DNA of 64,000 nt, taken from contig CARNVA010000008.1 of NCBI GenBank assembly GCA_949031345.1, forward strand, positions 7,661-71,660. The letters are read 5' to 3'. Origin of the DNA: an uncultured Eubacteriales bacterium. GTDB taxonomy: Bacteria; Bacillota; Clostridia; Christensenellales; UBA1242. A program made the position numbers and the translations under genes. Each line of letters begins with the position of its first letter. Position 1 is the stretch's first letter. This document shows positions 13,399 to 39,965 of the stretch, piece after piece. A model generated the notes under the pieces. That model searched no databases, was not told the DNA's origin, and saw nothing but the letters and a program-made list of their open reading frames with translations.

Positions 13399-13429
13399 AA
13401 AAAAAGTATAACAGCAAATGCTGTTATAC
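13399..13429 (-). terminator. rho-independent terminator of the large ncRNA
   Basis: A 10-bp stem (GTATAACAGC / GCTGTTATAC) with a 4-nt loop, followed by U7 on the minus strand. Confidence 0.85.
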
Positions 13430-13991
13430 TTAGAAGGCAGCTGGTTAAGTAAACCTTGCGCCATAGGTTCGGTCGGATTTCCCATTCTCGCACTCAAGCG
13501 TCACCGCTTCGAGCAGTTTCCTATTAAGCAAGACATTACACCGAATCGCCACTTAGGTCGCACTATAATCCCTATCCAGCCAGCACTTAGCAACAGTCTA
13601 GAAGTTTTCCTTGACAGAAAACAATTTTATTAGCCTATTTTGCAAATGCCATTTCATAAGCAGCAGTTTTCAAATTATTGGCCGATAATATGAAAACGCT
13701 TTTGCTTAATCCCAAGCCATTCACTCAAGGCAGGCTACGCTGCACACAACTTTTATCGCAATGCAGGTTCTTCCTCAATAGTAGAAGAGTTGACTTCCAC
13801 CCATTAAGGTCTCCACGAAAATTGGGTCGTGGACTGTATGCCATTACAATTCGCCCAAAATTCTTAACTCCCAGCACCAGCCCCAGTTTGGGCAACCAAA
13901 GCCAGCACCAGAAACTTCACAGATATGCCCGTCGACGCTATTACTTCGCCTTCCTAAAAAAGCCTTCTGACTAGAATACTGCACCTTCTAT
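13399..13991 (-). ncRNA. large (about 590 nt) structured non-coding RNA, class unresolved (OLE-like candidate)
   Basis: G+C-enriched block with no credible ORF. It has a consensus sigma-70 promoter upstream and a perfect terminator downstream on the minus strand. 5' AGAAGGC (13962-13968) can pair with 3' GCCTTCT (13432-13438). Several local hairpins are visible, such as CCACGA/TCGTGG and GTTTTC/GAAAAC. Confidence 0.65.
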
Positions 13992-13997
13992 TATTAG

Positions 13998-14026
13998 ATT
14001 ATATCATAAATGCAATAAAAATGCAA
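13998..14026 (-). promoter_or_regulatory. sigma-70-type promoter of the large ncRNA
   Basis: Minus strand reads TTGCAT (14026-14021), a 17-nt spacer, then TATAAT (14003-13998). Confidence 0.7.
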
Positions 14027-14270: not shown

Positions 14271-16415
14271 TTATAAATTCTTATCGTTATCGTTAAAATA
14301 TGATTGAAACATTTTCGCAATCGTATCTTTCGAATAACCAAATTTCTTTTCTCTGTCTTTTTCAAGTTTTCTTTCTTCTTCTAAAAAGGTCGTGGTATTT
14401 TTAAATCTTTCCATCATCTGAGAAGCCTTGTCATCATAATTTTTCTTTTCCTCTTCATCAATCTGATTGATTAAGATAGCACGCTCATCATCATTTTCTA
14501 TCCATAAGCTGTCAAATACTTCTAGGTTTTCTCTTCCTAAATGCACCTTTACAAATTCGCGTACCTTCTTTACTCCCTTCTCGTCCACGCACTTAAAGCT
14601 GCATGTAAGAGCATATTTCTCGGTCTGTTTGCTTGGCAGCGCTTTCAAATCCACTTGGTCTGACAATATATCTTCTATTGTTATTCGTGGTAGTGATGCA
14701 AATTTGATAAGGGCTATCGCGTTTGACTCGCCTATCTTATCTGCCAGCATCTTTATTCGAAGCTCTCCTTTATTTGCATATATGATATTCGAAACCTGTT
14801 CCCAGCCGCGTGGGTCGATTGCAAATTTTGGTGGGTTTTCTGTGTCATACTTTGTATAGAACGCATTCTTATCATTTGCTGCTACAAAGGCTGCTACTAG
14901 TGGGTGTATCTTAGTTTTACCGTCTGGTCTTTTCTCGCTTCCCCACTCCAAGAAGTCTTTTATATCTGGTTTAAGCTCGATATGTGCTTCAAAGCGGCGG
15001 AATAGTGGCTCTGGCATATTGTAGGCAGCTTCGCTCTCTTCTGGGCTATTTCCTGCTGCAATCACCACACAATTGTCTGGCAGTTTGCCTATATTTCCGT
15101 CTATCGACCTTGACAATACCAGGTGAAACACCAGTGACTGCTCGTTTGGTCTGACATTTGTAAGCTCATCTATGAATAACACATGATTGTGCTCTGGGTC
15201 TTTTTGGCAGACCTCTTTTATTCTTGTATACCAAGTTGGCTCTATCCAAAATGATTGTCTACCTTCTGTGCCCGTCTTTCCTGTTATCTCTTCTGGCAGC
15301 ATTCCATTTCTTAGTTGCAAGCATACGCAGTCTGGGTCAAGCTCTTGCACTCTCCTTGTCTTTCCTACTCCGCTTGGCCCATGCAGCATGAAGCTTATAC
15401 CTTCATCTATGTAAAACCTCATCTGCTCTTTTACTGACAGTGGCGTGTTGTTGATGCTTACGCCATAAGGGTTTGGGCGAGGCTTTGTTTCTTGCTTTTC
15501 CTCTTCTTCATCATCTTCATCTGAATAGTTAAGCTCTGCGTTCATGTCTGCCTCTTCCAAAAATCCACAACCTTTAGAATTATAAAGACGAGTTGGGGCA
15601 TCAGCCTCATTTCCATTACCCTTATTAAGTTCTTCCTCTAAATCATAGCCATTAAGATAAATACGAGGCAATGAATTTTGCCATTGCACTTCATTGTTGC
15701 GATGATAAAAAGGAACGCCTGATAAAATTCCCTTTTTGCTTCTTACTAACATCGTTTCATTTTCATCTTTTTCTATTAAAAACTCAATAGGCTCTACCTT
15801 AAACCAGTAATGTTCACCTTTATTAAAGTCGATATCACCCTCAAACGTCACCTTGCCTTTACATGTGCTTGATTTGTCCGCTCTGACCCTTACATATTTG
15901 TTGCCTTTGTATTCATACTCAAAGTTGTCTTGCAAAACGCTATCAAGTCCAGCTATATATCTTCCGCTGTAAACCCTGCCTGTAGCATTCAGCTTTCCAT
16001 CTTGATAAGCATCTTCGATTTCAGCCGAGTTTAATGCGTAAGACTGCGGGAAAACAAAATCATCAAAGGAAATGGTCTAATAATTGCCATAATTTATCAC
16101 ATTGTGATTTTTTGGAAGCTTCTTTTTGTCAAGCAACATGCTTGGAAAAATAGCATTTCTTTTGCAGGTAGATTCACAACAATATTCATTTCCTTCACTG
16201 AAACATAAGGCATCGTCATATTTTATATTTCTGATTGCAGCGTCGCATTCATTGCTGGCATTGATATCTGCACCGCAGGCGATTGCATAGTCGGTTGGCT
16301 TAAGCGGCATGAATGAATATTTCTCAAAATATTGAAAAGTATCAAAAAAAACAAGGTCTTTTGTACCACATTCAAGTTCCATCGGAATAATACAATTTTT
16401 AAAAAGTTGTGCCAT
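14271..16415 (-). pseudogene. DUF6273-like / MoxR-type AAA+ fusion, paralogue 1, interrupted by one in-frame TAG (16077-16079)
   Basis: ORFs 16077..16415 and 14271..15935 share a frame and are separated only by a TAG. The 47 codons between them have no stop. They read TISFDDFVFPQS..., homologous to paralogue 3 (TISFSKLTFPQR). The reconstructed length of about 714 aa matches the paralogues (714 and 692 aa). Confidence 0.7.
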
Positions 16416-16612
16416 TTAAACCTTCTTTCAATAAAATCTTACCTTCTTATTTTAGCACAATATCAACAGCTTTTCAATATTAAAAATAAATTTATTTAAA
16501 ACAACTTTAAAAAAAGACTTCCCTAAAACACGGAAAATCTTTTAATTTTTCTGTTTTTATTTAAAATTTCAGCTTTTTTCGCATTTTTTTTGCAAAATTA
16601 CTAAAATTTTTG

Positions 16613-17968
16613 TTAATTATCTCTATCAAACATGATTTTATAAATGATTTTAGAGTTTTCGTCAACTTTGACTTTTTCTGAAATTTCAATTCCGCCAACA
16701 ACAAAAATTTCATTTTCATTTGCAAGCACAGGCAGAAAATCTCTTATTCTTGCTGGCACCTTTTTATCAATCAAAAAGCTCTTCAGTTTTTTGCTTCCAC
16801 CACCAAATTTAGTATAGACATCCCCCTCTTTTCTCGTTCTCCACTTGGCACCTTTGGGAAGTTTGTCACCGTCTATGAAAAAAATATTTTCGCTTTTTAG
16901 TGAATCCACCAACTCTCCTTTATCTTTCACTTTCTTTATTGTGATTGTGCCAAAATTTTCAACATTGACTTTGCCGCATTTAAAGGTTGCTTCAAAGTTT
17001 GACTTTTCTTTTTGATTATTGTGAAATACAATATAGTCATATTCTTTGACCGCTTTGACATTAAATGGCAGGCTGAGCTTGCTTCCATTTTCGCCATTTT
17101 TAGCAAGGTCGATTATAAGAGAAATATGTTTTCTTTCAATATCTTTGTTTACACCAATACTCTTTAATGCTTTAAAAATTATACGCGATACAACTGCATT
17201 ATGAAAGACGAAATAACTCGTCGGCACTTTAACCAGTTTTTCTGCATGCAAAATTGCATCTTCATAAACCTGCGAATTTATATAATCGTCATCTTCACTT
17301 GCAGACCTGCCAAAATTGACAATTGCATCAACTGCATTTGGCCAGCGTGAGCAAATTTCCTTTAAAACGACATTTCGCACAAAGTTTCTATTGTAAGCAA
17401 TATCTTCATTGGTGTAATCATTGACATATTCAAGTTTGTTTCGTTTTAAATATACAAGAATATCCTCTTTAGAGCAATCAAGCAGCGGTCTGATAAAAAT
17501 TTTTTCACTTGTCGGCTCCATGCCCTTAGCCCCGCTCACGCCCGATCCTCTGAAAATATGCATGAGAATTGTCTCTGCCTGGTCATTTTTATGATGGGCA
17601 AGAGCCACTTTGTTTATTATTCCCTTTTTTACAAGTGACCTGAAAACCTCATAGCGAGCCTCCCTGGCCGCAGTCTCCAAGCTCTGTCCTCGCGTTTTAG
17701 CAAGTGCCGGCACATCTATTTTGAATTTGCAAAATCTTACCCCAAGCTCTTTTGCCAATTTTTCCACAAACTTGCAGTCTTGCCCGCTGTTTTCTCTTAT
17801 TTGGTGGTCAACATGAATGGCAACCAGATCAATTTTCAACGCGTCTTTATTCGTCGCCAGATAATGCAAAAGTGCAACAGAGTCACTGCCGCCGCTGACG
17901 CCCACACCAAGCTTATCACCACTTTTTAAAAGCTGATTATTTTGAATAAATTGTCCGCATAAATTCAT
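16613..17968 (-). CDS. tilS: tRNA(Ile)-lysidine synthase
   Basis: PP-loop motif GVGVSGGSDSVALL and a length of about 451 aa. ATG 17968 lies behind GAGGTG. The track start at 17986 is a TTG extension. Confidence 0.85.
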   Translation of the reverse strand: MNLCGQFIQNNQLLKSGDKLGVGVSGGSDSVALLHYLATNKDALKIDLVAIHVDHQIRENSGQDCKFVEKLAKELGVRFCKFKIDVPALAKTRGQSLETAAREARYEVFRSLVKKGIINKVALAHHKNDQAETILMHIFRGSGVSGAKGMEPTSEKIFIRPLLDCSKEDILVYLKRNKLEYVNDYTNEDIAYNRNFVRNVVLKEICSRWPNAVDAIVNFGRSASEDDDYINSQVYEDAILHAEKLVKVPTSYFVFHNAVVSRIIFKALKSIGVNKDIERKHISLIIDLAKNGENGSKLSLPFNVKAVKEYDYIVFHNNQKEKSNFEATFKCGKVNVENFGTITIKKVKDKGELVDSLKSENIFFIDGDKLPKGAKWRTRKEGDVYTKFGGGSKKLKSFLIDKKVPARIRDFLPVLANENEIFVVGGIEISEKVKVDENSKIIYKIMFDRDN

Positions 17969-18150
17969 GCATACACCTCTTATCAATAAAGATTTTTACA
18001 GTTTAGTATAACTTATTTTTCTTCTCAAACCAACATTTATCAACCTTTTTTCACATAAATTGCTGAAAAAAGTGTCAAAATTTGACAAAAAAGTCAGAAT
18101 TTTTCATCATTTTCAAAAAAATGATAAAAAAAAGAGCCTTCATAAGCCCC

Positions 18151-18318
18151 TTAATCTTCATCTGTTCCAAAAAGATATTTTGCATTTAAAACGCTGTGGC
18201 TGAAAAGCTTTAAACTTTCAAGAACGCGTATGCAATCATACTCTTTCTTTTTAAGTATAAGACTTATTGCCTCATCTATATATTTATTGATTATATCATA
18301 TTCGGTTTCTCTTGCCAT
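18151..18318 (-). CDS. small hypothetical protein (55 aa)
   Basis: AGGAG RBS 8 nt before ATG 18318. No motif recognised. Confidence 0.4.
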   Translation of the reverse strand: MARETEYDIINKYIDEAISLILKKKEYDCIRVLESLKLFSHSVLNAKYLFGTDED

Positions 18319-18552
18319 ATTTTTACTCCTGTTCACACTTTACTTATTTATGATTATCAACCTGTTTATTGTTTTTAAACTAAATTTAACAAAAATTTCG
18401 TCCACCAAATCAGTCTATGAAGATTTCTATTTTTCAGACACAATTTTTGCCATAAAAAACTTTAGTGCATATATTTTTATTTTTGCTCAGAAAAATCTAA
18501 GCAAAATTGCAGCATAAATTTTTCATTATTTTAAAGCTTTTACAACCTTTGT

Positions 18553-19074
18553 TTATTCAAGACCAGCTTCAGCATCATGCTCTTGAGCATACTTTCTTGT
18601 ATATTCTTTTTGGCGTTGAAGCTCTTTAAGTGCATATTTGATTGAATCTTTATTTGCTGTCAATGTTGTATAGCGAATAAGATTGTCAATTCCTGGCACA
18701 TCAATAGACTCTTGAAGCACTTTATCAAGCCCTTTAACCGCTCTGTCAAAATTAACTGCTGTTTCTTCCACCACCTCAAGCATTTTCTCATAGTCATTAT
18801 TGTCAATGATTTCTTCAAGTTTTGCCATTCTGCCTGTATGATTTTTTTCGACGTTTGCCTTAAAGGCATCAAAAAGTTTTAGGCAGTTTTGTGTAACTTC
18901 ATCATTTTCACCACTCGTGTCCATTCTAAACTCGCTGATTATGCTTTTGTATAGCCCCTGCATGCCAGCAAGGTCATTTATCATGTTTTGAAGCGTTTTG
19001 TCTACCTCTGCAGCGACCTCTTCCAAATTATATTCTTCGCCAAGAAATTTATAAACTTTTTCCATAGCATTCAC
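18553..19074 (-). CDS. helical hypothetical protein (173 aa)
   Basis: Long ORF with coding-like composition. No motif recognised. Confidence 0.6.
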   Translation of the reverse strand: MNAMEKVYKFLGEEYNLEEVAAEVDKTLQNMINDLAGMQGLYKSIISEFRMDTSGENDEVTQNCLKLFDAFKANVEKNHTGRMAKLEEIIDNNDYEKMLEVVEETAVNFDRAVKGLDKVLQESIDVPGIDNLIRYTTLTANKDSIKYALKELQRQKEYTRKYAQEHDAEAGLE

Positions 19075-19144
19075 CTCACTTATAATTTATCATATTTTGT
19101 CGATACTTGTGTGATATTTTTTCACAATAAAATATCACACAGGC

Positions 19145-19173
19145 TTGACAGTCCGCTTTTATATTATTATAAT
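19145..19173 (+). promoter_or_regulatory. perfect consensus promoter giving a leaderless or near-leaderless AraC mRNA
   Basis: TTGACA (19145-19150), a 17-nt spacer, then TATAAT (19168-19173). The ATG at 19181 is 7 nt after the -10 box and no RBS is present. Confidence 0.7.
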
Positions 19174-19180
19174 ATATTTT

Positions 19181-19888
19181 ATGATAAATATTTATAAACG
19201 GCTAAACAGTGCCATTGATTATATAGAGCAACACATATTTGAAGAGCCCGACATGAGAAAGATTTGCAGGCTCTTAGAGCTGAGTGGAAATCTTGCGTCC
19301 CCTCTTTTTGAGCTGCTCACTGGCTTTACCATAAAGGATTATATCAGAAAAAGACGGCTCAGCGAAGCTGCCCTTTTGCTTGCAAAGGACCGCGTGATTG
19401 ATGTGGCTGTTGCATGTGGATATGAGACTAGAGAGGGCTTTTCAAGAGCCTTTAAGGCCTTTCATGGAATTTCACCTTCAAAATGTCCTTCTGGCTTCAA
19501 TTATTTAAGCAAAATTCACTTTGATGAGCAGCTTTTATCTCATAGCCCTAGCCATCTTGAAATTATCACCCTTTCTTCGCGCAAACTTTATAGCCAATCT
19601 TGCACCTTCCCAGCAAAAACTTTTAATGAAGAGCTTTCATTTTTGCTGTCAAAACTAAAAATAAAAAATGAGGAAATTTTCATTTTTTCTCAAATCATTG
19701 AAGATGAAGCTCATTGCATAATCGCAAGCGAAGCCTGTTTTGAAGGCTTTAATAGCGAAAAAACTCTATGCGGCGGCAAATATATCATCAGCAAATCTCA
19801 ACAAGACAGCCTTCTTTCCTCAGCACAACCACAGACTATCCAATTGCGTAAAAATGGGGAAATTAAATATTTATATTTAATAGCTTAG
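19181..19888 (+). CDS. AraC-family transcriptional regulator with a C-terminal effector-type domain
   Basis: The HTH_18 region is LSEAALLLAKDRVIDVAVACGYETREGFSRAFKAFHGISPS. The track start at 19145 is actually the -35 box. Confidence 0.8.
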   Translation: MINIYKRLNSAIDYIEQHIFEEPDMRKICRLLELSGNLASPLFELLTGFTIKDYIRKRRLSEAALLLAKDRVIDVAVACGYETREGFSRAFKAFHGISPSKCPSGFNYLSKIHFDEQLLSHSPSHLEIITLSSRKLYSQSCTFPAKTFNEELSFLLSKLKIKNEEIFIFSQIIEDEAHCIIASEACFEGFNSEKTLCGGKYIISKSQQDSLLSSAQPQTIQLRKNGEIKYLYLIA

Positions 19889-19956
19889 TCTATTTCAATT
19901 TTTACTCTTGAAATTACAACCAATATATGTTACACTTTTTAAAGAGAGGTTTTTAA

Positions 19957-22101
19957 ATGAAACTTGAAGATATTTTAATTAAACAGACTGTTTCAAATCG
20001 AGGAATTATAACCAACGACTATGTCACGATTGACACCCATCAAAGCATTAAAGAATTAGGCCCAAATGAATCATATCGCTATATTACACCTTCCGATTTT
20101 GTTTTTGATAGTGGGTATGCAGAAGCAGCTCAGTTAAGCAACAACAGACATTGCAAAGTCTGGCTTATGCCAAACCAAAAACCCACTTTCAATTGCAGTA
20201 AAGGCGAATTTTCTAACACAACAAACTGCATAGAACAACATGGCGTACGCCCTAAAATAGATATTAAAATCGACGCTGTTCTTGAAGAATTTAGCCCGCT
20301 TGGCGTATATATATTGAATAAAATCAAAGGCGAAATTATATTTAATAATTTAGTTTATCCGCAAGAACAATGCTCAAGCTCTTTATGTGAACAACTTAAT
20401 AGAGCGAAAAAAGATAATCAAATAATTTTTACTGGAAGAAGTTTTCTTATAGATTCAGAATCAAAAGTAAATATTGCTGAAGTTTTATACAACAATGCTA
20501 GGTATGTTGAATTTGCAAATAAGTGGTATCATGTAAGTCCAATTGTATGGAAGATTGAAAATTGGAAGGATATGCCTTCTTCTTTAAATCCTATAAAAGA
20601 CCGATGGTGGAAGGAAGAAAATGCAGCAAAAGTTATGGAGCTGCGCTGCGTAAATGGGTTAATATTCCTGCCTTTCAACAACGAATATAACCTTATGCAT
20701 TCAGCCAATATTTATGAATGGCAAAATTCAAACGTCCGTGCATATTTAAACAGTCTCAACCTTCACAAAGATATTCAAGCTGGCAATGGCGACCCTACAA
20801 AACTTTGCACCAAGAATATAAACTTTGAGGGTAATGGATTTTTAGAGCAAATGTTTATTCAAGACAAAGTCCTGATCAGTGGGAAGAAAACAGAGAAGAA
20901 AATTTTAATAAACAAACAAATGAAAAAGCTTGCAGAAAAAGAAGATTCTCCTTATTCAGTAACCGTTGACAATACCCCGCTCACAGCGACCGAGCAAATG
21001 AAATTCTATCTTGAAACAGGCAAAAACTTTATGCTTCATGGCCCAAGCGGCGTGGGCAAATCTAGACGCGTCAAAGAGCTTGACCCAGACTGCGTCTGCC
21101 TGCAACTAAGAAATGGAATACTTCCAGAAGAAATTATTGGTAAGACTGGCTCTGAAGGAAAAGAAACTTTTTGGATTGAGCCAACTTGGTATACCCGCTT
21201 AAAAGAGCTTTGCGAAAACGACCCAAAGCACAACCATATTCTCTTTATTGACGAAATAACAAATGTAAGACCAAGCGAACAATCTTTGGTTTTCCATATT
21301 GTGCTTGAGCATTCTATCGATGGAAATATTGGCAAACTGCCAAAAAACTGCATAGTGGTCGCAGCTGGAAACAGCCCTGAAGAGAGTGAAGCTGCCTATA
21401 ATATGCCAGAGCCACTGTTCAGACGCTTTGCAGGGCATATATATCTTGACATTGATATTGAAAGTTTCATTGAATGGGGAAGTGAAAAACGAGCTGACGG
21501 ATTGACTAAAATTCACCCACTTGTTTCACTTTTTATTGCCGAAAAAGGAAAGAAGGTGTTCTATTCAAAATACGACCCTGAAAATCCGCCTAAATTCACC
21601 CTTGACCCTCGTGGCTGGGAGCAGGTTTCAAGCATAATCTATGCAAACAATAATACATTAAGCATCAAACTGCTTTCAGACAAGCTTGGGACAAAGGTGG
21701 CAAATGAGCTTATTTCTTTTGCCAAAAGAGCAAATTTCTTAACACTGAAAGATATTTTAAGTGGCAATTATATTGGAAAAATTCCTTTTTCAACAGAAGG
21801 CAAAGACTTTCTCGTCTGCAATCTGCGTTATACTGATAAAAAAGATGTAGGCTCAGTGCGTCAATTTATCAAAAAGCATCTTGGTCAAGACAGACTTGAA
21901 AAATTTGATAGACTTTGGATTGATGGCCAGCAAGACAAAAAAGATTATCTTGACAAACTTGATGCCGAGCAAGAAGAACAAAGACTTAGAGAAGAAGAGA
22001 GAAGGCTTAAAGAAGAAGAGCTTGAAAGAGAAAGAAGAGAAAAAGAAGAACAAGAGAAAATTAAAAATAAACAAAAAGAAGAGGATTTTTTAACCTTTTA
22101 G
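19957..22101 (+). CDS. DUF6273-like / MoxR-type AAA+ fusion, paralogue 2 (714 aa)
   Basis: AAA+ motifs are Walker A LHGPSGVGKS, LPEEIIGKT, Walker B LFIDEITN, sensor AAGN, MPEPLFRRF and DPRGWEQVS. The N-terminal module has GVRPKIDI, WYHVSPIVWKI and WQNSNVRAYLNSLN. The tail is E/K/R-rich coiled coil. Confidence 0.85.
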   Translation: MKLEDILIKQTVSNRGIITNDYVTIDTHQSIKELGPNESYRYITPSDFVFDSGYAEAAQLSNNRHCKVWLMPNQKPTFNCSKGEFSNTTNCIEQHGVRPKIDIKIDAVLEEFSPLGVYILNKIKGEIIFNNLVYPQEQCSSSLCEQLNRAKKDNQIIFTGRSFLIDSESKVNIAEVLYNNARYVEFANKWYHVSPIVWKIENWKDMPSSLNPIKDRWWKEENAAKVMELRCVNGLIFLPFNNEYNLMHSANIYEWQNSNVRAYLNSLNLHKDIQAGNGDPTKLCTKNINFEGNGFLEQMFIQDKVLISGKKTEKKILINKQMKKLAEKEDSPYSVTVDNTPLTATEQMKFYLETGKNFMLHGPSGVGKSRRVKELDPDCVCLQLRNGILPEEIIGKTGSEGKETFWIEPTWYTRLKELCENDPKHNHILFIDEITNVRPSEQSLVFHIVLEHSIDGNIGKLPKNCIVVAAGNSPEESEAAYNMPEPLFRRFAGHIYLDIDIESFIEWGSEKRADGLTKIHPLVSLFIAEKGKKVFYSKYDPENPPKFTLDPRGWEQVSSIIYANNNTLSIKLLSDKLGTKVANELISFAKRANFLTLKDILSGNYIGKIPFSTEGKDFLVCNLRYTDKKDVGSVRQFIKKHLGQDRLEKFDRLWIDGQQDKKDYLDKLDAEQEEQRLREEERRLKEEELERERREKEEQEKIKNKQKEEDFLTF

Positions 22102-22124
22102 AAGACACTTTTTCAACGGACTAT

Positions 22125-22430
22125 TTGAAAAAAGTCCAAAAAATAATCGACAAATACAAAAATGCCCCAAATCTGCCTGAAAAATTTATATTTGATTTTC
22201 TGGATACAGCAGAATCCACTGTTTTAACAAATGACCAACTTAGCAGATTTGTCATGTTATTTGATTTCATTTCACATTATAAAAATAGGATTTCTGACGA
22301 ACAATTTACGACTATACTCGATGCTTTCAATGACACAAGCTTGTCATCTAAAGAATTTTATGATTATTTAAGAAACATCATATTTAAAATTCACCGTAAA
22401 GGAGACGACTGCAACGAAATGGAGATGTAG
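22125..22430 (+). CDS. hypothetical protein (101 aa) between the two AAA+ paralogues
   Basis: TTG start with helical composition. No motif recognised. Confidence 0.5.
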   Translation: MKKVQKIIDKYKNAPNLPEKFIFDFLDTAESTVLTNDQLSRFVMLFDFISHYKNRISDEQFTTILDAFNDTSLSSKEFYDYLRNIIFKIHRKGDDCNEMEM

Positions 22431-22496
22431 TACACAATCTGTTTTCATTTAATATTCAAATTTCACAAAAAAAATATAACAGGAGATAAAAAAGTC

Positions 22497-24575
22497 ATGG
22501 ATTTAAAAACCGAGCTTTACAACTTAATAATTAAAAATGACTTTGACGACTATTTTTCTATTCCCAAAATAGCTTCTTTAAAGGCTGTTTCCGCAAAAGA
22601 GAGAAAATTGGTCCTTTCTGACTATGCACAAGCTTGTGGAGGGTTTGTCGACAATTTCAATCCTGGTCGATACACCATTTATGTTTTTAATGAAGGGCGC
22701 AGCTTTTATGCCTCACATATTGTTCCAATAGTTTGTTCAAACGGTAAATTTAATTATAATGAAGTTACTTCAAAAGATGCATGCATTGCGCCAAGAATGA
22801 TTTTAGACATTGACAAACTGAAAAACTCAAGGCTTGGCGAGGAATATAAGATTGACCCAATTGAAAAGACAATTTCTTTTTCAAAACTCACCTTTCCACA
22901 GCGTATATCACCAAATAGTGACCAACTTGAAATGCAATTTAAGAAAAATCCAGCTTCTTTTAAGACAAGCGGAAAAACTTTCAGCGGCAAGTTTATCAAC
23001 GCCCACTCTTTCGACTGCCTTGAGCACAACAACGAATATCTGATTGAGGGCAAACTTTATGCCAGAGTGAAAGTTTTAAACAACCAATCTGTAATAAACA
23101 CTCAACCCTTCTCAGACGGCAAAGTTTATGAGAATGGCAGATACATTTGGTGCATGGTCGAGCCTATCGTGTGGAAGATAGACAATTTTGGCGACATTGC
23201 AACGCTTATTGACGAAAATTCAATTATGCTTCAAAAGACAAGCCATAGAATGTATTTACATGCCCGAGATGGCATAATCAGCGGCATGCCATTTTATCCT
23301 GCTTATGAGAAAATCAACAATTACTGTGAGCTTTATCAAAACTCGCTTATACGGGCATATCTCAACAGCTTAAACACCTATGCTAACATTGAGAAAAACC
23401 CAGAAAAATTTAAACTCAAAGCCCCTCAAAATTTTAATTTTGTAGACAACGGCTTTATTGATGAAATAATTGCCAGCGACATAGAAAATCTTAAGGAAGA
23501 CTATGTCAATGGAGAATACAACCTCGTTTTTGACAATACTCCACTTTCCGTAAAAGAGCAAATGCGGTTTTATCTTAATACTGGCAAAAGTTTCATGCTT
23601 CACGGCCCAAGCGGTGTGGGCAAAACAAGGCGAGTGCAAGAGCTTGACCCAGACTGCGTCTGCATCCAGCTTCGTGACGGAATGCTTCCAGAAGAGATTA
23701 TTGGCAAGACCTCTTTTGATGGCAATGCTACAGGCTGGATAGAACCAACTTGGTATACAAGGCTTAAATTCCTCTGCAACAAAGAGCCAGAAAAAAAGCA
23801 TATTCTATTCATTGACGAGCTTACAAATGTTCATGAAAACGAACAATCTCTAGTCTATCATATTGTGCTTGAGCATTCCATTGACGGAAATCTTGGTGCT
23901 CTGCCTAAAAACTGCGTGGTAGTTGCGGCAGGAAACAATCCTGATGAAAGTGAAGCTGCCTACAACATGCCAGAGCCACTCTTTCGCCGATTTGAAGGGC
24001 ATATCTATCTTCAGCCAAACCTTTCAAGCTTTCTTGAATGGGGAAGCGGTTTGGACGAAAATGGAAATCCAAAAATTCATCCGCTTATTGCTGAGTTTTT
24101 AGCAAGCAACAAGGGAAATGCCTTCTATTCAAAATATGATTCAATCTCTCCACCAAAGTTTGCAATTGACCCTCGCGGCTGGGAGCAAGTTTCAAAGATC
24201 ATCTATGACAACAAAGGTGTTTTGCGGTTTGAGCTTTTGGCAAGCAAGCTTGGTGAGGATATTGCCAGCGACCTTATGGCATTTGCAAAGCTTCCAAAAA
24301 TTTCCATTTCAGATATTATGAACGACAAAATAAAAACCTCAATTATTCCTCCCGACAAAGACTCTAAGTTTGCCCTCACCTGCGCGTTGCGCTCTGCAAA
24401 CGAGAAGCAAGTGGAAAAAGTGCGCCAGTTTATAAAAATTTATCTTGGCGAAGAAAACCTTGCCTTCTTTGACTCTATGTGGTGCGAAGATAATGAAGAA
24501 CGGGCAATTTTGATTGGACAAATTGACTCACAATACCACCTTGAAGCTTTAAGCAATCCAAAAGAGGACTTATGA
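22497..24575 (+). CDS. DUF6273-like / MoxR-type AAA+ fusion, paralogue 3 (692 aa)
   Basis: Same AAA+ motif set (LHGPSGVGKT, LFIDELTN, AAGN, MPEPLFRRF, DPRGWEQVS). The N-terminal module has SDYAQACGG, TFPQ, WCMVEPIVWKI and YQNSLIRAYLNSLN. Confidence 0.85.
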   Translation: MDLKTELYNLIIKNDFDDYFSIPKIASLKAVSAKERKLVLSDYAQACGGFVDNFNPGRYTIYVFNEGRSFYASHIVPIVCSNGKFNYNEVTSKDACIAPRMILDIDKLKNSRLGEEYKIDPIEKTISFSKLTFPQRISPNSDQLEMQFKKNPASFKTSGKTFSGKFINAHSFDCLEHNNEYLIEGKLYARVKVLNNQSVINTQPFSDGKVYENGRYIWCMVEPIVWKIDNFGDIATLIDENSIMLQKTSHRMYLHARDGIISGMPFYPAYEKINNYCELYQNSLIRAYLNSLNTYANIEKNPEKFKLKAPQNFNFVDNGFIDEIIASDIENLKEDYVNGEYNLVFDNTPLSVKEQMRFYLNTGKSFMLHGPSGVGKTRRVQELDPDCVCIQLRDGMLPEEIIGKTSFDGNATGWIEPTWYTRLKFLCNKEPEKKHILFIDELTNVHENEQSLVYHIVLEHSIDGNLGALPKNCVVVAAGNNPDESEAAYNMPEPLFRRFEGHIYLQPNLSSFLEWGSGLDENGNPKIHPLIAEFLASNKGNAFYSKYDSISPPKFAIDPRGWEQVSKIIYDNKGVLRFELLASKLGEDIASDLMAFAKLPKISISDIMNDKIKTSIIPPDKDSKFALTCALRSANEKQVEKVRQFIKIYLGEENLAFFDSMWCEDNEERAILIGQIDSQYHLEALSNPKEDL

Positions 24576-25408
24576 TTGTAAATGAAATAAAAGTCAAGGA
24601 CTACTTGACAAAATCAAAACTTGACGATTACACAATAAACCCATATGTTGGTTGCTCTCACGCCTGCAAATATTGTTATGCCTGTTTTATGAAACGCTTC
24701 ACCGCTCACAAAGATAAATGGGGCGAATTTGTTGATGTAAAGCTTTGCGATAAGCCAATTGATATAAAGAAACTAGCTGGCAAGACCCTCTTTCTTTCAA
24801 GTGTAACAGATTGTTATAACCATCTTGAAAGCAAATATGAAGTGACCAGAAAGATTTTAACGCAGCTTATTGCCGCCGACGCAAAAATTCAAATTTCAAC
24901 CAAAAACAAACTTATCCTGCGCGACCTTGACATATTGAAACAACTTAAAAATGTCACAGTTGCCCTTTCAGTAAACACCCTCGACGAAACTTTCAGAAAG
25001 GATATGGACAGAGCAAGCACCATTGACGAGCGTCTTTTCACCTTAAAGACTCTTCATGAAAATGGCATAAAAACTGTGCTTTTCATGTCTCCAATTTTTA
25101 TGGGACTTACAGATTATAAGGGAATAATCGAGCGAACAAAGACTTTCATTGATGAATATTGGTTTGAAGACCTAAATCTCAGAGGCGAATATAAGTATGA
25201 AATTCTTGACTACATAAAAACAAAACATCCTCAGCTTTTTCCCTATTATCAAAGTGTTTATGTCGAAGGCAACAGGCGTTATCTTGAAATATTAAACAGA
25301 AAAATTGTCAAGTGCGCCCAAGCAAATGGTGTAAAATATCAAGATTACTTTCACCATACTGATGTAATCAAGCGTGAAATGCTGAAATCGAAAAACTTAA
25401 ATCAATAG
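24572..25408 (+). CDS. radical SAM protein, SplB-like (COG1533-type 'DNA repair photolyase' family)
   Basis: Cluster motif is NPYVGCSHACKYCYACF. The ATG overlaps the upstream TGA (ATGA). Confidence 0.8.
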   Translation: MIVNEIKVKDYLTKSKLDDYTINPYVGCSHACKYCYACFMKRFTAHKDKWGEFVDVKLCDKPIDIKKLAGKTLFLSSVTDCYNHLESKYEVTRKILTQLIAADAKIQISTKNKLILRDLDILKQLKNVTVALSVNTLDETFRKDMDRASTIDERLFTLKTLHENGIKTVLFMSPIFMGLTDYKGIIERTKTFIDEYWFEDLNLRGEYKYEILDYIKTKHPQLFPYYQSVYVEGNRRYLEILNRKIVKCAQANGVKYQDYFHHTDVIKREMLKSKNLNQ

Positions 25409-35555: not shown

Positions 35556-37814
35556 TTACATTTCATAGTCATCTTCATATTCATCAAACAAATTTTGCTG
35601 AGGTTTAACAGGTCTGCTTTGATTGCCATTTCCTGCAGTTTTTTGTTGAGAGCTTAAAGTTTGACTTGAAGCTTTATCAGTAAGCATACTCAATTGTCCG
35701 CCTTTTCGCACCTCGGCACTCTTGACATGAATGACTTTTCCGTCGCTGTATCTAAAGTTTGGATTGTCAAAAACTACGAAAATTATTTTCAGATTTTTAT
35801 AGTCACCATTTGGAAAACCATATCCGTCATAACCATCAGTGAAAACAATTCTGTTCACCTTTTTATCTTTTGAGAAAGCACGACAAGCACTATCAATACA
35901 TGTTCCACCACGGCCAACAAATCTGTAAGAGTCAATGTCTTTTGTCTTTTTAATCTCGGTAAAACCATGAAAAGTGTTATCAAAGCAGCCGATTTTAAGT
36001 TTTATATCTCTCGACTCACTGTCTTTGTATGCGTCTTTCAAAAGAGCTTTAACCTGTCTTAAGAAGCCTCTTAAAAGCTCATCATCAATACTTCCGCTGG
36101 TGTCAAGAATGACTTCAGTGGCTGGCTGATCATAATTTTGACGACTTTCAATTCTTGGCATATAGTAGTTGTCGCGACTAGAACGACGATAACTCCACAC
36201 AGAATCAACTTTTTCAAACTCATTTTTCAAGAGTTTCTTCCATGAAACTGCTGCCTTTGCTTCGCCAACTTCTCCAAACGCACCTTCGCCGCTGTCGCTT
36301 CCTTGCCCTCCAGCTTTGACTCTGTCACCAATTCTTTTGCGAATTTCTTCAGCAAGCTTTCTTTTCATATCCTTGTTCATGCTTTGAAATTCTTTTTCAA
36401 GCGCATCATAATCTACATCTTCATCAGCGTTATTTTGATTTTGCTGAGGGCTGTTGCCCTTATCATGTTTTTGTTGCTCGTTTGCTTTTTTATCTTTTTC
36501 AAACTCTTCTTTCTTTTCTTTTCGACTTTGATCAAGTTCTTTTCTGAATTTATCTTCAGCACTTTCCTCGCCGTTTTCATCATTTTCATCTTGGTCTTGA
36601 TTGTCTTGATCTTTGTCTTTATCTTTATTCTTTTCTTTCTTCTTTTGTTCTTCTTCCTTCTTCTTCTCGTATTTCTCTAAAGCCTTTTTCCATCCGTCGT
36701 GGTTTTGAGGTTGTTGTGGAAGAGGTTGATCTTGCTGTCTTTGGTCGCCTTGTCCCTGATTGTAATCTTCCTGTTGTTGCTGTTGACCATTGGCACCGCC
36801 ACCTTGACCTTGTTGGTTATTTTGTCCTTGCTGTTGCTGGTTTTGACCGTTTTGACCACTGCCGCCCTGTCCATGCTGTTGTTGTCCATTCTTCTGGTCG
36901 CTTTGTCCACCATTCTGTCCGCCTTGTGATTTTTGATTGCCATTTTGTCCACTTTGACCGCCGCCTTGACCACCGCCAGATTGACCTTGTTGTGAATTTC
37001 CATCGCTTTGCTGTTGACCTTGCTGGCCATGGCCACCGCCTTGACCTTGCTGATTTTGTTGTTGTCCCTGTTGTCCTTGACCGCTAGACTGTTGTTGCTG
37101 TTGTTTTCCACTGTTGAGGTCTTGCTCGCCTTTTCCATCTTTACTAGATGGGCCATTTTGTTGATTTTGGCCACCTTGACCGCCAGACTGTTGTTGATTT
37201 TGGCCGCCTTGGCTTCCACCTTGACCTTGTTGGTTTTGCTGAGATTGACCTTGCCCGCTTTGTTGTTGCTGGTTTTGACCATTTTGTTGTTGATTATGCT
37301 GAGGGTTTCCCTGTTGACCTTGACCACCAGACTGTTGCTGTTGTTGCCCATTTCTTGCTTGTTGTTGCTGAGCCTGTTGCTGCATTTTGTCATAAACAAC
37401 TTTATACATATCTTCTGCAGATTTGTCTTTCGCTTCTGGCATATCTACCAAACCGTCAGGAAGTTTCAAACCTTCACTGCGTATGATTTCATTGATTACG
37501 GCGTCGGTCGCTATGTTCCAAGCACCCATATCTCTTTCAGTGCCGTCTTTGGCTCTAAGTCTTGGAATATGATTGAAGGCAACATGCATGACTTCATGTG
37601 TCATAATTCCCACTTTTTCATCAAATGAAAGAGAATCCATAAATTGAGGTTCGAAATAAACATTTTCATGGTCTGTCATAGCAGTGCCAACGCCTTTTGC
37701 ATATTTCATATCAAGACCTGACACAGTTGTTCCGAGAGAAGGAAACTTTCTAAGCATTGCCTTTTTTAAATCTTCAAGTTCTTTCTTTCTGTCGTTTTTG
37801 TCAAAGAGTCCCAT
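35556..37814 (-). CDS. HExxH metallopeptidase-domain / VWA-domain protein (DUF2201-type) with a roughly 330-aa disordered insert
   Basis: HEVMHVAFNH lies at residues 73-82. The MIDAS motif is VILDTSGS at about residues 568-575, and RIVFTDGY lies near the C-terminus. Residues about 144-371 are almost only Q/G/N/S. Residues about 375-470 are K/E/D-rich. Confidence 0.85.
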   Translation of the reverse strand: MGLFDKNDRKKELEDLKKAMLRKFPSLGTTVSGLDMKYAKGVGTAMTDHENVYFEPQFMDSLSFDEKVGIMTHEVMHVAFNHIPRLRAKDGTERDMGAWNIATDAVINEIIRSEGLKLPDGLVDMPEAKDKSAEDMYKVVYDKMQQQAQQQQARNGQQQQQSGGQGQQGNPQHNQQQNGQNQQQQSGQGQSQQNQQGQGGSQGGQNQQQSGGQGGQNQQNGPSSKDGKGEQDLNSGKQQQQQSSGQGQQGQQQNQQGQGGGHGQQGQQQSDGNSQQGQSGGGQGGGQSGQNGNQKSQGGQNGGQSDQKNGQQQHGQGGSGQNGQNQQQQGQNNQQGQGGGANGQQQQQEDYNQGQGDQRQQDQPLPQQPQNHDGWKKALEKYEKKKEEEQKKKEKNKDKDKDQDNQDQDENDENGEESAEDKFRKELDQSRKEKKEEFEKDKKANEQQKHDKGNSPQQNQNNADEDVDYDALEKEFQSMNKDMKRKLAEEIRKRIGDRVKAGGQGSDSGEGAFGEVGEAKAAVSWKKLLKNEFEKVDSVWSYRRSSRDNYYMPRIESRQNYDQPATEVILDTSGSIDDELLRGFLRQVKALLKDAYKDSESRDIKLKIGCFDNTFHGFTEIKKTKDIDSYRFVGRGGTCIDSACRAFSKDKKVNRIVFTDGYDGYGFPNGDYKNLKIIFVVFDNPNFRYSDGKVIHVKSAEVRKGGQLSMLTDKASSQTLSSQQKTAGNGNQSRPVKPQQNLFDEYEDDYEM
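36702..37385 (-). repeat. low-complexity Q/G/N/S-coding region (about 230 codons) inside the peptidase-VWA gene
   Basis: Runs such as QQQQQSGGQGQQG and GQGGGHGQQGQQQ. The DNA is a degenerate CAA/CAG/GGN repeat, which creates long spurious ORFs on both strands. Confidence 0.9.
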
Positions 37815-37862
37815 AATTATACCACCTTTAAGTCATGCACACAAAAGTGCCTGCATGATGAT

Positions 37863-38282
37863 TTATTCTTCCACTTTGTAATAAAGTGAAAGAGAAAGTA
37901 TTTCTCTATTTATTTTAGCACGATTTCCATCATTTATCAAGATGGCAATTTGCATATTTTCAGGTAATTTAAAGCCATTCAACGATTTTCCGTCCAAAAT
38001 GCCCTTAAATTTCAACTGCTCATCCTCCGAAATAGTGTCAAGCCCTTCAATAAGCAATAAATTAGCCTTAGCATTTTTTCGTGCTTCAACTGATTTAACC
38101 CAGTCTGGCATTTTAAGACCACCGATGTCATTGATTACTCCAAGACTTGCAGAAGGCACTGTCGCAGGAAGCACTGTCGCACTTAAGAAGTCCTCCTTTT
38201 TCACGCCGCCTTCAATGATGACCGGCCAGCTTTTATTATTTTTTAAAAGTTCGTTGAGTTTTCTCTTCATATTATTATCCAC
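37863..38282 (-). CDS. degenerate (catalytically dead) mini-AAA+ paralogue (139 aa)
   Basis: It aligns with the core of the three AAA+ paralogues. PVIIEGGVKKEDF replaces LHGPSGVGKTRRV, LLLIEGLDTISEDEQ replaces LFIDELTNVxxNEQ, and KLPENMQIAILIN matches KLPxNCVVxAAGN. The arginine-finger RRF is lost. Confidence 0.7.
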   Translation of the reverse strand: MDNNMKRKLNELLKNNKSWPVIIEGGVKKEDFLSATVLPATVPSASLGVINDIGGLKMPDWVKSVEARKNAKANLLLIEGLDTISEDEQLKFKGILDGKSLNGFKLPENMQIAILINDGNRAKINREILSLSLYYKVEE

Positions 38283-38442: not shown

Positions 38443-39723
38443 TTATGGGGTGATTCTTTCAGGGCCGCGGAAGATAAACATTGCTTCTTTGATGTTTGCA
38501 AGCTCTAAAAGATTCATAAGCATGCGGTCAAGACCGATTGCAAATCCGCCGTGTGGAGGGCAGCCATATTTGAAGAATTGGAGATAAAATTCAACATCCT
38601 TTTCAAGCCCTTTTTCAGCCGCTTGTGCCTTAAGCACATCATATCTGTGCTCTCTTTGCGCGCCAGTAGTGATTTCTACGCCCTTCCAAATAAGGTCATA
38701 ACCCTGTGGAACGCCATCTTTTCTGAGGTGATAGAATGCACGCTTGCTTGCGCCATAATCAGTTACGAACAAAAATTCATGGCCATAAACTTCTTGCGCA
38801 AACTGTCTGCAAAGCCTTTCAGCTTCTGTTGCAAGATCGTCTTTTTCTTCTTCTGTGGTGAAGCCATAACGCTGTTCAAGCTGCTTATAAAGCTCAGCAA
38901 GTTTAATTCTTGGGAATGGTAAACTTGGCACAACCACCTCTACGCCAAAAGTTTCTTTAATTTCTTCACCATATTTTTCTTTAACCTGCCCAAGCGCATA
39001 GGCAAGCATTTCCTCTTCAAGCTTCATCACATCTTCATAGCTTTCAATCCAAGAAAATTCAAGGTCAAAGCTGGTAAATTCAGTCGCATGCTTTTTTGAA
39101 TGAGACTTTTCTGCGCGGAACACAGGCGCAACTTCATAAACTCTTCCAAAACCACTTGAATTTGCCATCTGCTTGTAAAATTGAGGACTTTGTGCAAGAT
39201 AAGCAAGCCCATCAAAATATTTCACCTCAAAGACCTCAGAGCCACTTTCAGAAGCGGTTGCAATAAGTTTTGGTGAGTGAATTTCAACAAAGTCACGCTC
39301 GTTTAAATACTCTCTCATTGCATTGTTTAAAAGAGTTTGCACCTTAAAAGCAAGCAAGTTTTTATCTTGCCTAAGGTCAAGCCAGCGATAGTCAAGCCTC
39401 TGGTCAATGTTGCTTTCTGGTCCAATAGGATAAGCCTCTGCTGTGCTGGTAACTTCCACCTTGTCAGCCAAGACCTCCCTTCCGCCAAGCTTAACATATT
39501 CGCTTTTTACAAGCTGACCTTCCACCAAAACAGTAGAGCCAGCAAGAAGATGAGAAAACACCTCTCCCACCTCAGGATAAGCCACCTTATCAACTGTGAC
39601 TTGAATTTTTCCAGAAAAGTCCTTAAGCACGATAAACTGAATGTTTTTCTTGTCTCTTACCACTTCAATCATGCCTTGAAAACGCACTCTTCCTTCCTGT
39701 AATTTTGAAATTTGTGTTGTCAT
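38443..39723 (-). CDS. aspS: aspartyl-tRNA synthetase, archaeal/eukaryote-like type 2
   Basis: About 426 aa. Class II motifs with LAQSPQFYKQM and VAPVFRAE, and GGFAIGLDRMLM at the C-terminus. ATG 39723 lies behind GAGGAGG. The track start at 39774 reads through the T-box terminator. Confidence 0.85.
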   Translation of the reverse strand: MTTQISKLQEGRVRFQGMIEVVRDKKNIQFIVLKDFSGKIQVTVDKVAYPEVGEVFSHLLAGSTVLVEGQLVKSEYVKLGGREVLADKVEVTSTAEAYPIGPESNIDQRLDYRWLDLRQDKNLLAFKVQTLLNNAMREYLNERDFVEIHSPKLIATASESGSEVFEVKYFDGLAYLAQSPQFYKQMANSSGFGRVYEVAPVFRAEKSHSKKHATEFTSFDLEFSWIESYEDVMKLEEEMLAYALGQVKEKYGEEIKETFGVEVVVPSLPFPRIKLAELYKQLEQRYGFTTEEEKDDLATEAERLCRQFAQEVYGHEFLFVTDYGASKRAFYHLRKDGVPQGYDLIWKGVEITTGAQREHRYDVLKAQAAEKGLEKDVEFYLQFFKYGCPPHGGFAIGLDRMLMNLLELANIKEAMFIFRGPERITP

Positions 39724-39759
39724 AAATTCCTCCTCAACCTCGGGGCAGACACAGCACAT

Positions 39760-39960
39760 AAAAAATCGCCCCAATGTAAAATTTCTACATTAGGACGAAA
39801 TAATTTCCGCGGTGCCACCTAACTTGCTCCAAAAAAGAGCCTCTTTTCTTAAATTGTCAAACTCCAAAGTGTCCTTCATAATATCACAGTTTGGCAATTT
39901 TCACCCTCATGCCTCTCTGAAAAACTGTCGATAAAACTACTCTCTTTTTCATAGTTTTCA
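39760..39960 (-). promoter_or_regulatory. T-box riboswitch leader of aspS
   Basis: The minus strand has AGAGAG and AGTAG in Stem I and a distal GGTGAAA. The T-box sequence is AGTTAGGTGGCACCGCGG (39807-39824). The terminator TCGTCCTAATGTA / TACATTGGGGCGA plus U6 lies at 39798-39760. The candidate specifier GAC is at 39873-39871. Confidence 0.85.
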
Positions 39961-39965
39961 TCAAA

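Follow-up and report, generated by a model that had tools for sequence, protein, structure and literature searches.

Predicted circularly permuted DUF6273 heads on three MoxR-type ATPases, probable subunits of an undescribed MoxR–VWA system of uncultured gut Clostridia

MoxR–VWA pairs are very widespread and poorly understood AAA+ machines, and their choice of client is known for few cases, such as Rubisco and cNOR. The DNA analysed here, a stretch of 64,000 nucleotides from an uncultured Eubacteriales bacterium (assembly GCA_949031345.1, contig CARNVA010000008.1, positions 7,661 to 71,660 of the forward strand; hereafter the window), poses this question in a new setting. It encodes three paralogues, named A, B and C below, in which a first-pass annotation made from the sequence alone recognised a MoxR-type core fused to an N-terminal module resembling the normally extracytoplasmic DUF6273. 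What does such a head do on an ATPase, and with which partners does the ATPase work? We consider it reasonably probable that A, B and C are ATPase-subunit paralogues of an undescribed MoxR–VWA system of uncultured gut Clostridia, in which the heads serve as target selectors for a MoxR/VWA-metallopeptidase machine. Such a system would have four kinds of component: a head-bearing MoxR ATPase, usually with an N-terminal head of ~335 aa; a small protein, p139; a DUF2201 protein; and, in some genomes, free-standing heads. The three ATPase genes are the following.

14271..16415, minus strand: paralogue A; in-frame TAG at codon 113, all ATPase motifs kept.
19957..22101, plus strand: paralogue B; 714 aa as encoded here, head and AAA+ core, C-terminal domain lost by frameshift.
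22497..24575, plus strand: paralogue C; 692 aa, the sole fully intact copy according to the open reading frame (ORF) scan.
Domains of C: head, aa 1-335 (nt 22497-23501); MoxR-type AAA+ core and lid, aa ~345-590; helical C-terminal region, to aa 692.

All three of the ~700-aa genes first reported were thus found, with the correction that A is not one open frame and B is truncated. The identification of the core as a MoxR-type AAA+ ATPase is supported by motifs, profiles and structure. The motifs LHGPSGVGK(T/S), LPEEI(I/T)GKT, LFIDE(L/I)TN, AAGN, MPEPLFRRF and DPRGWEQVS, on which the AAA_5-like assignment had been based, occur without exception in A, B and C. GPSGVGK(T/S), LFIDE, AAGN, PEPLFRRF and DPRGW are invariant among the three and nearly invariant in 71 homologues, and they occupy the places of Walker A, Walker B, the sensor-1 Asn (AAGN), an arginine motif of the xLxDRF type (PEPLFRRF) and a sensor-2-like element (DPRGW). 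Pfam AAA_5 matched all three proteins above its cut-off of 22 bits (C 31.1, A 26.2, B 23.7), and AAA_3 exceeded its own cut-off in C alone. An AlphaFold2 model of C built with the 71 homologues had a mean predicted local distance difference test score (pLDDT) of 87.5. When this model was compared with the PDB by Foldseek, the top 13 matches were NorQ and CbbQ (E 2e-9 to 2e-7), the best of them, NorQ (including NorQ–NorD VWA complexes) and CbbQ, having E 2e-9 to 4e-9 and a target template-modelling score of 0.56-0.60; RNF213 and McrB ranked after these. The model has a hairpin at aa 404-415, past the LPEEIIGKT segment, the inserts typical of the clade being read from secondary structure, without superposition. 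Sequence searches of the PDB with the core gave no more than marginal matches (CbbQ and a MoxR, at E 0.06-0.2), and the core is therefore a divergent branch.

The cores had been described as near-identical, which overstates their similarity: over 340 aa they share 59-63% identity in pairwise comparisons. The heads share 27-32%, which bears out the description of strongly diverged heads on a conserved motor. No signal peptide or transmembrane helix is apparent in A, B or C, as first reported, the highest Kyte-Doolittle mean of any 19-residue segment being 1.24, and the products are predicted to be cytoplasmic.

To see with what these ATPases are encoded, one genome per species was scanned, which yielded 76 related loci, labelled L001 onwards; L001, L002, L003 and L007 include assemblies of the same species as the window. 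Almost all loci come from uncultured gut Clostridia, that is, from metagenome-assembled genomes (MAGs) labelled Christensenella, Catabacter, Eubacteriales, Clostridia or Lachnospiraceae, often with three to six loci per MAG. At 37 of the 76 loci the ATPase gene is followed directly and on the same strand by a DUF2201 gene, with a p139 homologue in between in 32. Counted separately, p139 lies directly 3′ of the ATPase gene in 35 loci and a DUF2201 homologue is present in 39, the gaps from the ATPase gene to p139 or DUF2201 being mostly about −76 to +100 nt. In all-against-all clustering of the flanks, the ATPase, p139 and DUF2201 were the sole gene families that recurred across loci. The p139–DUF2201 pair is the canonical partner of the ATPase, so that the co-occurrence with the gene pair at 35556..38282, which the first-pass annotation had proposed to check, is borne out as an operon at 37 of the 76 related loci. 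In the window the pair is encoded as follows.

37863..38282, minus strand: p139, the small third component; 139-aa ORF, predicted degenerate AAA+ core fragment (hhalign and synteny).
35556..37814, minus strand: DUF2201 partner; 752 aa, Pfam DUF2201_N E 3e-26, DUF2201 E 2e-8.

This pair (38282..35556) has no ATPase gene beside it and lies 11-21 kb from the ATPase genes. Its upstream neighbour is an aminoacyl-tRNA-synthetase-like gene, 38443..39774, that is controlled by a T-box leader (39788-39961, minus strand, 97.5 bits). As to the spread of the family, matches also occurred in MAGs labelled Alphaproteobacteria, Prevotella or archaea (L043, L057, L069, L075, L080-L082). The archaeal matches are distant and headless, and among these loci only L080 has an adjacent DUF2201 gene; those labelled Alphaproteobacteria or Prevotella reflect either mis-binned contigs or horizontal transfer.

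The DUF2201 protein has three parts: an N-terminal HExxH metallopeptidase-like domain, a Q/G-rich linker and a C-terminal VWA-like domain with a metal-ion-dependent adhesion site (MIDAS; DTSGS...GGT...FTDG). The HExxHxxxxH and MIDAS residues are kept in at least 90% of 40 homologues, and WNIATDAVIN is conserved too. The linker of the window protein (~36300-37400) is rich in Q, G and N, of low complexity and roughly 350 aa long; at 752 aa the whole protein is longer than 39 homologues (413-643 aa), and in phage phiTE the linker of the homologue is shorter and rich in G, Q and S. A MoxR ring could thread or grip such a linker. As for p139, comparison of its family with the core family by hhalign gave a probability of 88% (E 3e-6, 90 columns), covering the stretch of the core from Walker A to sensor 1, in which p139 no longer has the Walker B glutamate, and by this alignment p139 (~135 aa) is a degenerate and probably catalytically dead fragment of the same AAA+ core. 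The relationship is visible in the family-level comparison only: BLASTP of p139 against paralogue C found no match, Pfam (E<=5), NCBIfam, PADLOC and PHROG gave none, and a word-indexed homologue search returned 7 close relatives only, none of them named.

We then have to account for the heads. DUF6273 is a C-type-lectin-like domain that, in gut phages, is a target of diversity-generating retroelements (DGRs), which vary its C-terminal end (PMC10743442, PMC11792537, 10.1101/2024.10.15.618418). The likeness of the heads to this domain had been argued from short motifs, which are present but in some copies only in part: DYAxACG is present in A and C, with DFVFDSG in B; WxxVxPIxWKI in B and C, with WFKVEPIEFLI in A; and (W/Y)QNSxxRAYLNSLN in B and C, with WQNSLPRIYLNGYD in A. 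It had also been argued from the following protein, which serves here as a comparator outside the system.

40017..42995, minus strand: 992-aa secreted or surface protein; DUF6273 in canonical order and Flg_new repeats (Pfam), hydrophobic N-terminus.

WLRTADPW and GVRPAFHLNL are indeed present in this protein, which has a Pfam DUF6273 match at E 4e-7. In two other MAGs, homologues of it (L010:3861-6773, L016:940-3852, L067:1881-6534) are encoded within 3-6 kb of ATPase paralogues, which may be plain synteny among relatives, not a functional link.

The question whether the heads are related to DUF6273 at all is a fair one, since the shared short motifs could be convergent and the head an unrelated beta-rich domain. 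Two results speak for this alternative. The window heads A, B and C had no match to Pfam DUF6273 (PF19789) at E<=5, either in native or in re-permuted order, and a Foldseek search of the head-only model, itself confident (pLDDT 88, predicted template-modelling score 0.89), found nothing significant in the PDB or BFVD, the DUF6273 phage protein among its matches reaching merely E 0.48. Foldseek aligns in sequence order, however, and is handicapped by a circular permutation, which is what the homologues display. A hidden Markov model (HMM) built from 92 homologous heads recognises all three paralogues, with E values of 1e-54 to 1e-74 (C 1e-73, B 4e-64), and ten full-length homologues match PF19789 at 20.8-38.7 bits, nearly all of them above the gathering score of 23.5 bits. 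In these homologues aa ~3-122 of the head always map to positions ~50-171 of the DUF6273 profile, and the remainder of the head (FGEYPQ, WxKVEPIxWxI, WQNSxIRxYLNG) holds the counterparts of the profile start; the native heads are thus not co-linear with the profile (positions 1 to 172), the N-terminal part of which is found at the C-terminal side of the head. When the C-terminal part of the homologue heads was placed before the N-terminal part and the sequences were rescored, the partial matches merged into single ones at profile positions 2-171, 28-171 and 30-171, with gains of 5-11 bits and scores of up to 46 bits. This merging indicates that the head is, as far as sequence comparison can tell, a circularly permuted DUF6273 domain with a beta-rich insertion.

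Two further comparisons point the same way. The head family profile aligned to aa ~294-408 of the 992-aa protein, its DUF6273 region, with an hhalign probability of 85% (E 6e-6), so that a profile search able to show the head unrelated to the extracellular module instead links the two; the head HMM run against all six-frame ORFs of the window retrieved A, B and C alone and not the secreted protein. Searched against 1.84 billion representatives, the head-only profile gave 8,372 matches at E<=1e-3 and 320 at E<=1e-30, among them giant surface proteins with tandem Pfam DUF6273 arrays (P0130, P0196, 259 bits); such an array is a plausible source of the permuted unit. We therefore regard an unrelated head as very improbable. 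The DUF6273 likeness stands through the homologues, the re-permutation and hhalign, with no direct Pfam match for the window's own heads; and since the confident head model found no significant structural neighbour, the C-type-lectin-like fold that we assign to it is deduced from the sequence family.

That the head functions as a component of the MoxR/VWA system is best supported by the pattern of its fission and fusion within the gene clusters. Free-standing head genes (376-415 aa) occur inside ATPase/p139/DUF2201 clusters. At L068 the order is headless AAA, p139, DUF2201, head; at L020 it is head-AAA, p139, DUF2201, head, head; and at L039 and L042 it is DUF2201, head, head, p139, head-AAA, head-AAA, head, head. 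The ATPases themselves vary accordingly, with headless copies and double heads (L032). Three of them (L047:9947-12733, L048:9941-12493 and L050:9998-12289) have an N-terminal AAA+ core, no N-terminal head and an unannotated C-terminal extension of 300-550 aa, and p139 and DUF2201 still lie downstream. The permuted head is also fused, with no AAA+ core, to BspA-type leucine-rich repeats (LRR_5) and an unannotated C-terminal region of ~550 aa in P0168 (1050 aa) and P0176 (927 aa), where it begins at residue ~5 and no signal peptide precedes it.

Taken together, these observations suggest the following model. By analogy with related ATPases, the MoxR subunits would assemble into a hexameric ring, and the lectin-fold heads, whether fused or free, would be exchangeable receptors that choose the target. 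On the analogy of NorQ–NorD and CbbQ–CbbO, the VWA domain of DUF2201 would dock on the ring and grip an acidic residue of the target through its MIDAS; ATP hydrolysis would then remodel the target and the attached HExxH domain would process it, with p139 acting as a non-catalytic regulator or spacer. Different head paralogues would in this way give several specificities to one motor and cofactor set. In the window, the p139–DUF2201 pair would be served in trans by the paralogues at 14-25 kb.

The heads vary far more than the motor. Family-wide column entropy was 2.37 bits in the head and 0.94 bits in the core. The head peaks at 2.99 bits at aa 47-98, the equivalent of the C-terminal, ligand-binding, DGR-variable end of DUF6273; in phage DUF6273 proteins the DGR variable regions map to the C-terminal part of the domain (PMC11792537, PMC10743442). 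The paralogues also bear traces of exchange. Paralogue A and its L001 orthologue (L001:1773-3908) have heads that are 99.7% identical (synonymous divergence, dS, 0.02) and cores only 89% identical (dS 0.43), and the pattern is reversed in the comparison with L002 and L008, which suggests recombination or gene conversion among paralogue cores. A DGR as a regular feature of the family was considered and set aside, there being no template/variable repeat (TR/VR) in the window and no recurrent reverse-transcriptase family near its members.

Two of the three paralogues are damaged in this strain. In A, the TAG at codon 113 (window 16079..16077, minus strand) leaves the ORFs 16077..16415 and 14271..15935; read as a single frame, 14271..16415 gives a 714-aa paralogue with this one in-frame stop. 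Its orthologues in sister assemblies are intact, with 711 aa and a Lys in place of the TAG. A pyrrolysine reading of the codon was considered, but the orthologues encode that Lys by AAG, so that a simple nonsense mutation or assembly error is the more economical account, and A is likely a pseudogene in this strain. In B, a DNA alignment placed the lesion in a T6 run at 22086..22091, where L001 and L003 have T7 and L007 has A plus T6, that is, one extra base at the same spot. Intact B, which is 826 aa long in L001/L002 (824 aa in L007), takes in a separate ORF of the window.

22125..22430, plus strand: 101-aa ORF; C-terminal extension of paralogue B, cut off from it here but continuous with it in sister strains.

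The product of this ORF is 99% identical to sequence inside the 826-aa gene of L001/L002, within its last ~100 residues, and has no match in Pfam, NCBIfam or PHROG. Elsewhere, different paralogues are split by frameshifts (L007:3316-5394, L062:9938-12032, L056:555-2649), and the C orthologue of L007 is divided into 440 and 219 aa; either such lesions are real and frequent, or MAG assembly has introduced homopolymer errors.

Beyond the system itself, the surroundings of the copies in the window and at the inspected loci are housekeeping genes with no defence island. Directly downstream of paralogue A and on the same strand lies a full-length OLE (ornate large extremophilic) RNA (13418-14003, minus strand, 408 bits), followed by a gene for a 269-aa multi-pass membrane protein (12252-13061, minus strand) in the position expected for the OLE-associated OapA. 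A radical SAM gene (24572..25408, plus strand) overlaps the stop codon of C by 4 nt; the nearest model is that of "radical SAM mobile pair protein B" (TIGR04470), at 297 bits, below the cut-off of 410, and the gene also matches phrog_13321 (E 9e-56). As a component of the system it was discarded, being kept beside C in the same species and at one other locus (L060) only. The AraC gene, the 173-aa gene and tilS were discarded likewise, since their conservation is confined to the same species, apart from tilS at one distant locus. Membership in known defence systems was also rejected, the only matches being weak generic AAA ones to DolB and IteA.

Several of these results, and the nature of some of the claims, weigh against the proposed system. 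The ATPase and partner genes are unlinked in the window, and their cooperation in trans is our supposition; ring formation, target binding by the heads and peptidase activity are put forward by analogy; and, with two of three copies damaged, the paralogues could be dispensable. Within the species, omega was 0.14-0.47 for heads and 0.04-0.15 for cores, indicating purifying selection on both. The window holds no DGR template/variable repeats, the DNA repeats between paralogues being confined to the AAA core (74-79%). PADLOC returned only weak generic AAA matches, with p139 and DUF2201 unmatched, and the genes around the copies, as noted above, are housekeeping ones. To these are added the two null results on the heads given earlier, the failure to match Pfam DUF6273 and the lack of significant Foldseek neighbours.

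What would target selection be for? We slightly favour the recognition of variable or foreign cytoplasmic proteins, in a conflict or surveillance role, over the maturation of a dedicated host complex. Paralogue expansion, head variability, scattered lesions and the published MoxR-vWA ternary systems (PMC7159879, PMC10907252) favour this role; the housekeeping neighbourhoods, the lack of a defence-database match and the purifying selection weaken it, and because of that selection on the heads within the species the conflict reading stays an analogy and not a result.

Its most specific form would be an anti-invader sensor, in which a germline-encoded repertoire of heads, as cytoplasmic receptors, binds phage or other foreign proteins and thereby sets off the module to destroy the invader protein or a host target, much like an abortive response. 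The multiplied paralogues fit this, as do heads that are far more variable than the motor with a peak in the ligand-binding, variable-region-equivalent segment, lesions that hit different paralogues in different strains, a mosaic head/core history suggestive of recombination, and heads on BspA-type LRR proteins that have no signal peptide. There is bioinformatic precedent for a cytoplasmic C-type-lectin-fold sensor coupled to MoxR-vWA in the ternary conflict systems (PMC7159879, PMC10907252), and phages carry a homologous MoxR and DUF2201 pair. It is harder to reconcile with the purifying selection on the heads within the species and with the absence of a defence-island context, of a PADLOC model for p139 or DUF2201, of any DGR or other diversifier in the window repeats and the recurrent flanking families, and of a classic toxic effector apart from the peptidase-like domain. 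We see it as a possibility to be taken seriously, if short of probable. In a broader version, still more tentative, germline multi-paralogue lectin-fold receptors, fused to the MoxR ring or free beside it, would pass protein or glycan-bearing targets to a VWA-tethered metallopeptidase for ATP-driven processing, with p139 as regulator; the machine would then amount to an AAA+ protease guided by receptors, or to an innate-immune module, unrelated to Clp, Lon, FtsH and STAND.

Alternatively, the system could be a housekeeping chaperone that matures or repairs host complexes like NorQD, CbbQO, CoxDE and RavA–ViaA, the heads being adaptors for host clients, possibly glycosylated or cofactor-bearing. 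To our knowledge, every experimentally characterised MoxR–VWA pair acts in maturation or remodelling, and such a role agrees with the structural matches to NorQ/CbbQ, the housekeeping neighbours and the purifying selection on heads. Against it, no conserved client gene lies beside the operons, where only the three system families recur; the genes are patchily distributed, in strongly varying copy number and with some copies turned into pseudogenes; and a peptidase-like domain on the VWA partner is foreign to the known maturation pairs. We hold this role to be rather unlikely.

That the genes are a prophage or virion-assembly remnant, descended from a phage MoxR and metallopeptidase-vWA assembly chaperone with a role in virion morphogenesis now or once, is the least credible reading of all: the core matches phrog_1297 (E 1e-37) and the DUF2201 protein phrog_1314 (E 3e-60), a headless homologue of 23-28% identity occurs in 321 phage records, the phiTE MoxR and DUF2201 genes are close with just an HNH gene between them, and the phage pair has been suggested to act in virion assembly (PMC7824862), but no phage structural, integrase or lysis genes surround the copies in the window or the inspected loci, 2.9 million viral contigs (IMG/VR) gave just 5 distant, headless matches, and heads and p139 were not found in the phage homologues. 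A phage origin of the ATPase/DUF2201 pair is nonetheless plausible for a cellular family that does not lie in prophages.

The proposed MoxR–VWA system matters chiefly for the question raised at the outset. Its specificity element appears modular and visible in the sequence, in many versions per genome, some fused, some free and some replaced by other domains, so that client selection becomes directly testable with individual heads. The lectin-like fold of hypervariable phage and surface binding would have been moved into the cytoplasm by circular permutation, which bears on the reuse of binding scaffolds. The family is limited to gut Clostridia that are abundant but uncultured, where its members are annotated merely as "hypothetical protein" or "AAA family ATPase", and the annotation of thousands of metagenomic proteins would gain from a name for the system and a defined gene set.

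The first-pass annotation knew of no described function for this architecture, and neither the literature (DUF2201, COG3864, DUF6273, MoxR with phage or anti-phage) nor the defence databases contain it; there is no earlier description in the literature searched. Its relatives are instructive: in its proposed working it is like NorQD/CbbQO or McrBC with a receptor added, and its logic recalls that of the ternary conflict systems. The closest likeness is to NorQ–NorD and CbbQ–CbbO (the CbbQ/GvpN/NorQ group), which provide the best structural match of the core, share the AAA_5-type motif set, have a partner with a C-terminal VWA domain and MIDAS, and place the ATPase gene directly upstream of the VWA gene, as in the canonical loci here. 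However, sequence identity to the window core is only 13-18%, the known NorQ and CbbQ ATPases lack an N-terminal recognition domain, NorD and CbbO lack an HExxH peptidase-like domain, and there is neither a p139-like third gene nor a family of paralogues. Their clients, cNOR and Rubisco, are encoded nearby, and none is evident in the present system.

The MoxR-vWA ternary conflict systems, of VMAP, iSTAND, FtsH and beta-propeller types (Kaur et al. 2020, PMC7159879; Dore et al. 2024, PMC10907252), are similar in combining a MoxR and vWA core with a third component, a lectin-fold domain as proposed variable sensor, an associated peptidase and expanded component numbers. Unlike here, their lectin-fold (FGS) domain sits on the vWA protein and is usually DGR-diversified; in the present system a DUF6273-type domain sits on the MoxR ATPase or is free, and no DGR was seen. 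The third component here, p139, has no Pfam match at E<=5 and aligns to the AAA core as a fragment, which sets it apart from VMAP and iSTAND, a placement made with no direct comparison to VMAP or iSTAND profiles, and the hosts of those systems are multicellular cyanobacteria and actinobacteria, in contrast to the unicellular gut Clostridia.

Jumbo phages have been reported to carry MoxR together with a metallopeptidase-vWA protein (PMC7824862), and the phage pair formed by phrog_1297 and phrog_1314 (rV5-like, PA5oct-like and other large phages) has a homologous ATPase and a DUF2201 protein with HExxH, a G/Q-rich linker and MIDAS, phiTE_060 aligning in the HExxH and MIDAS regions. The phage ATPases are headless (~350-410 aa) and 23-28% identical, no p139 was seen in the stretch that separates the MoxR gene of phiTE from its DUF2201 gene, no PHROG family matches p139, and the cellular family does not occur in phage contexts. 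The DUF6273 domains of Bacillota surface proteins and gut-phage DGR targets (tentaclins, Mtd-like) belong by profile to the same sequence family as the heads and, like them, concentrate variability in the equivalent of the C-terminal variable region. The order differs, the C-terminal two thirds coming first in the head and then the N-terminal part with a beta insertion of ~70 aa, and the head lacks a signal peptide, is predicted to be cytoplasmic, forms part of an ATPase and is no target of a DGR.

McrBC, finally, has an AAA+ ring of the same structural clade, the structural match next after NorQ/CbbQ and RNF213, and combines a variable N-terminal target-recognition domain with a separate effector subunit, as in our model. 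McrB is a GTPase that reads modified DNA and McrC a nuclease; the present system has no McrC homologue, and McrBC no VWA partner. The architecture described here thus differs from each of the compared systems in defining features, while its MoxR core, its VWA partner and its predicted lectin-like heads each have a counterpart in one or another of them.

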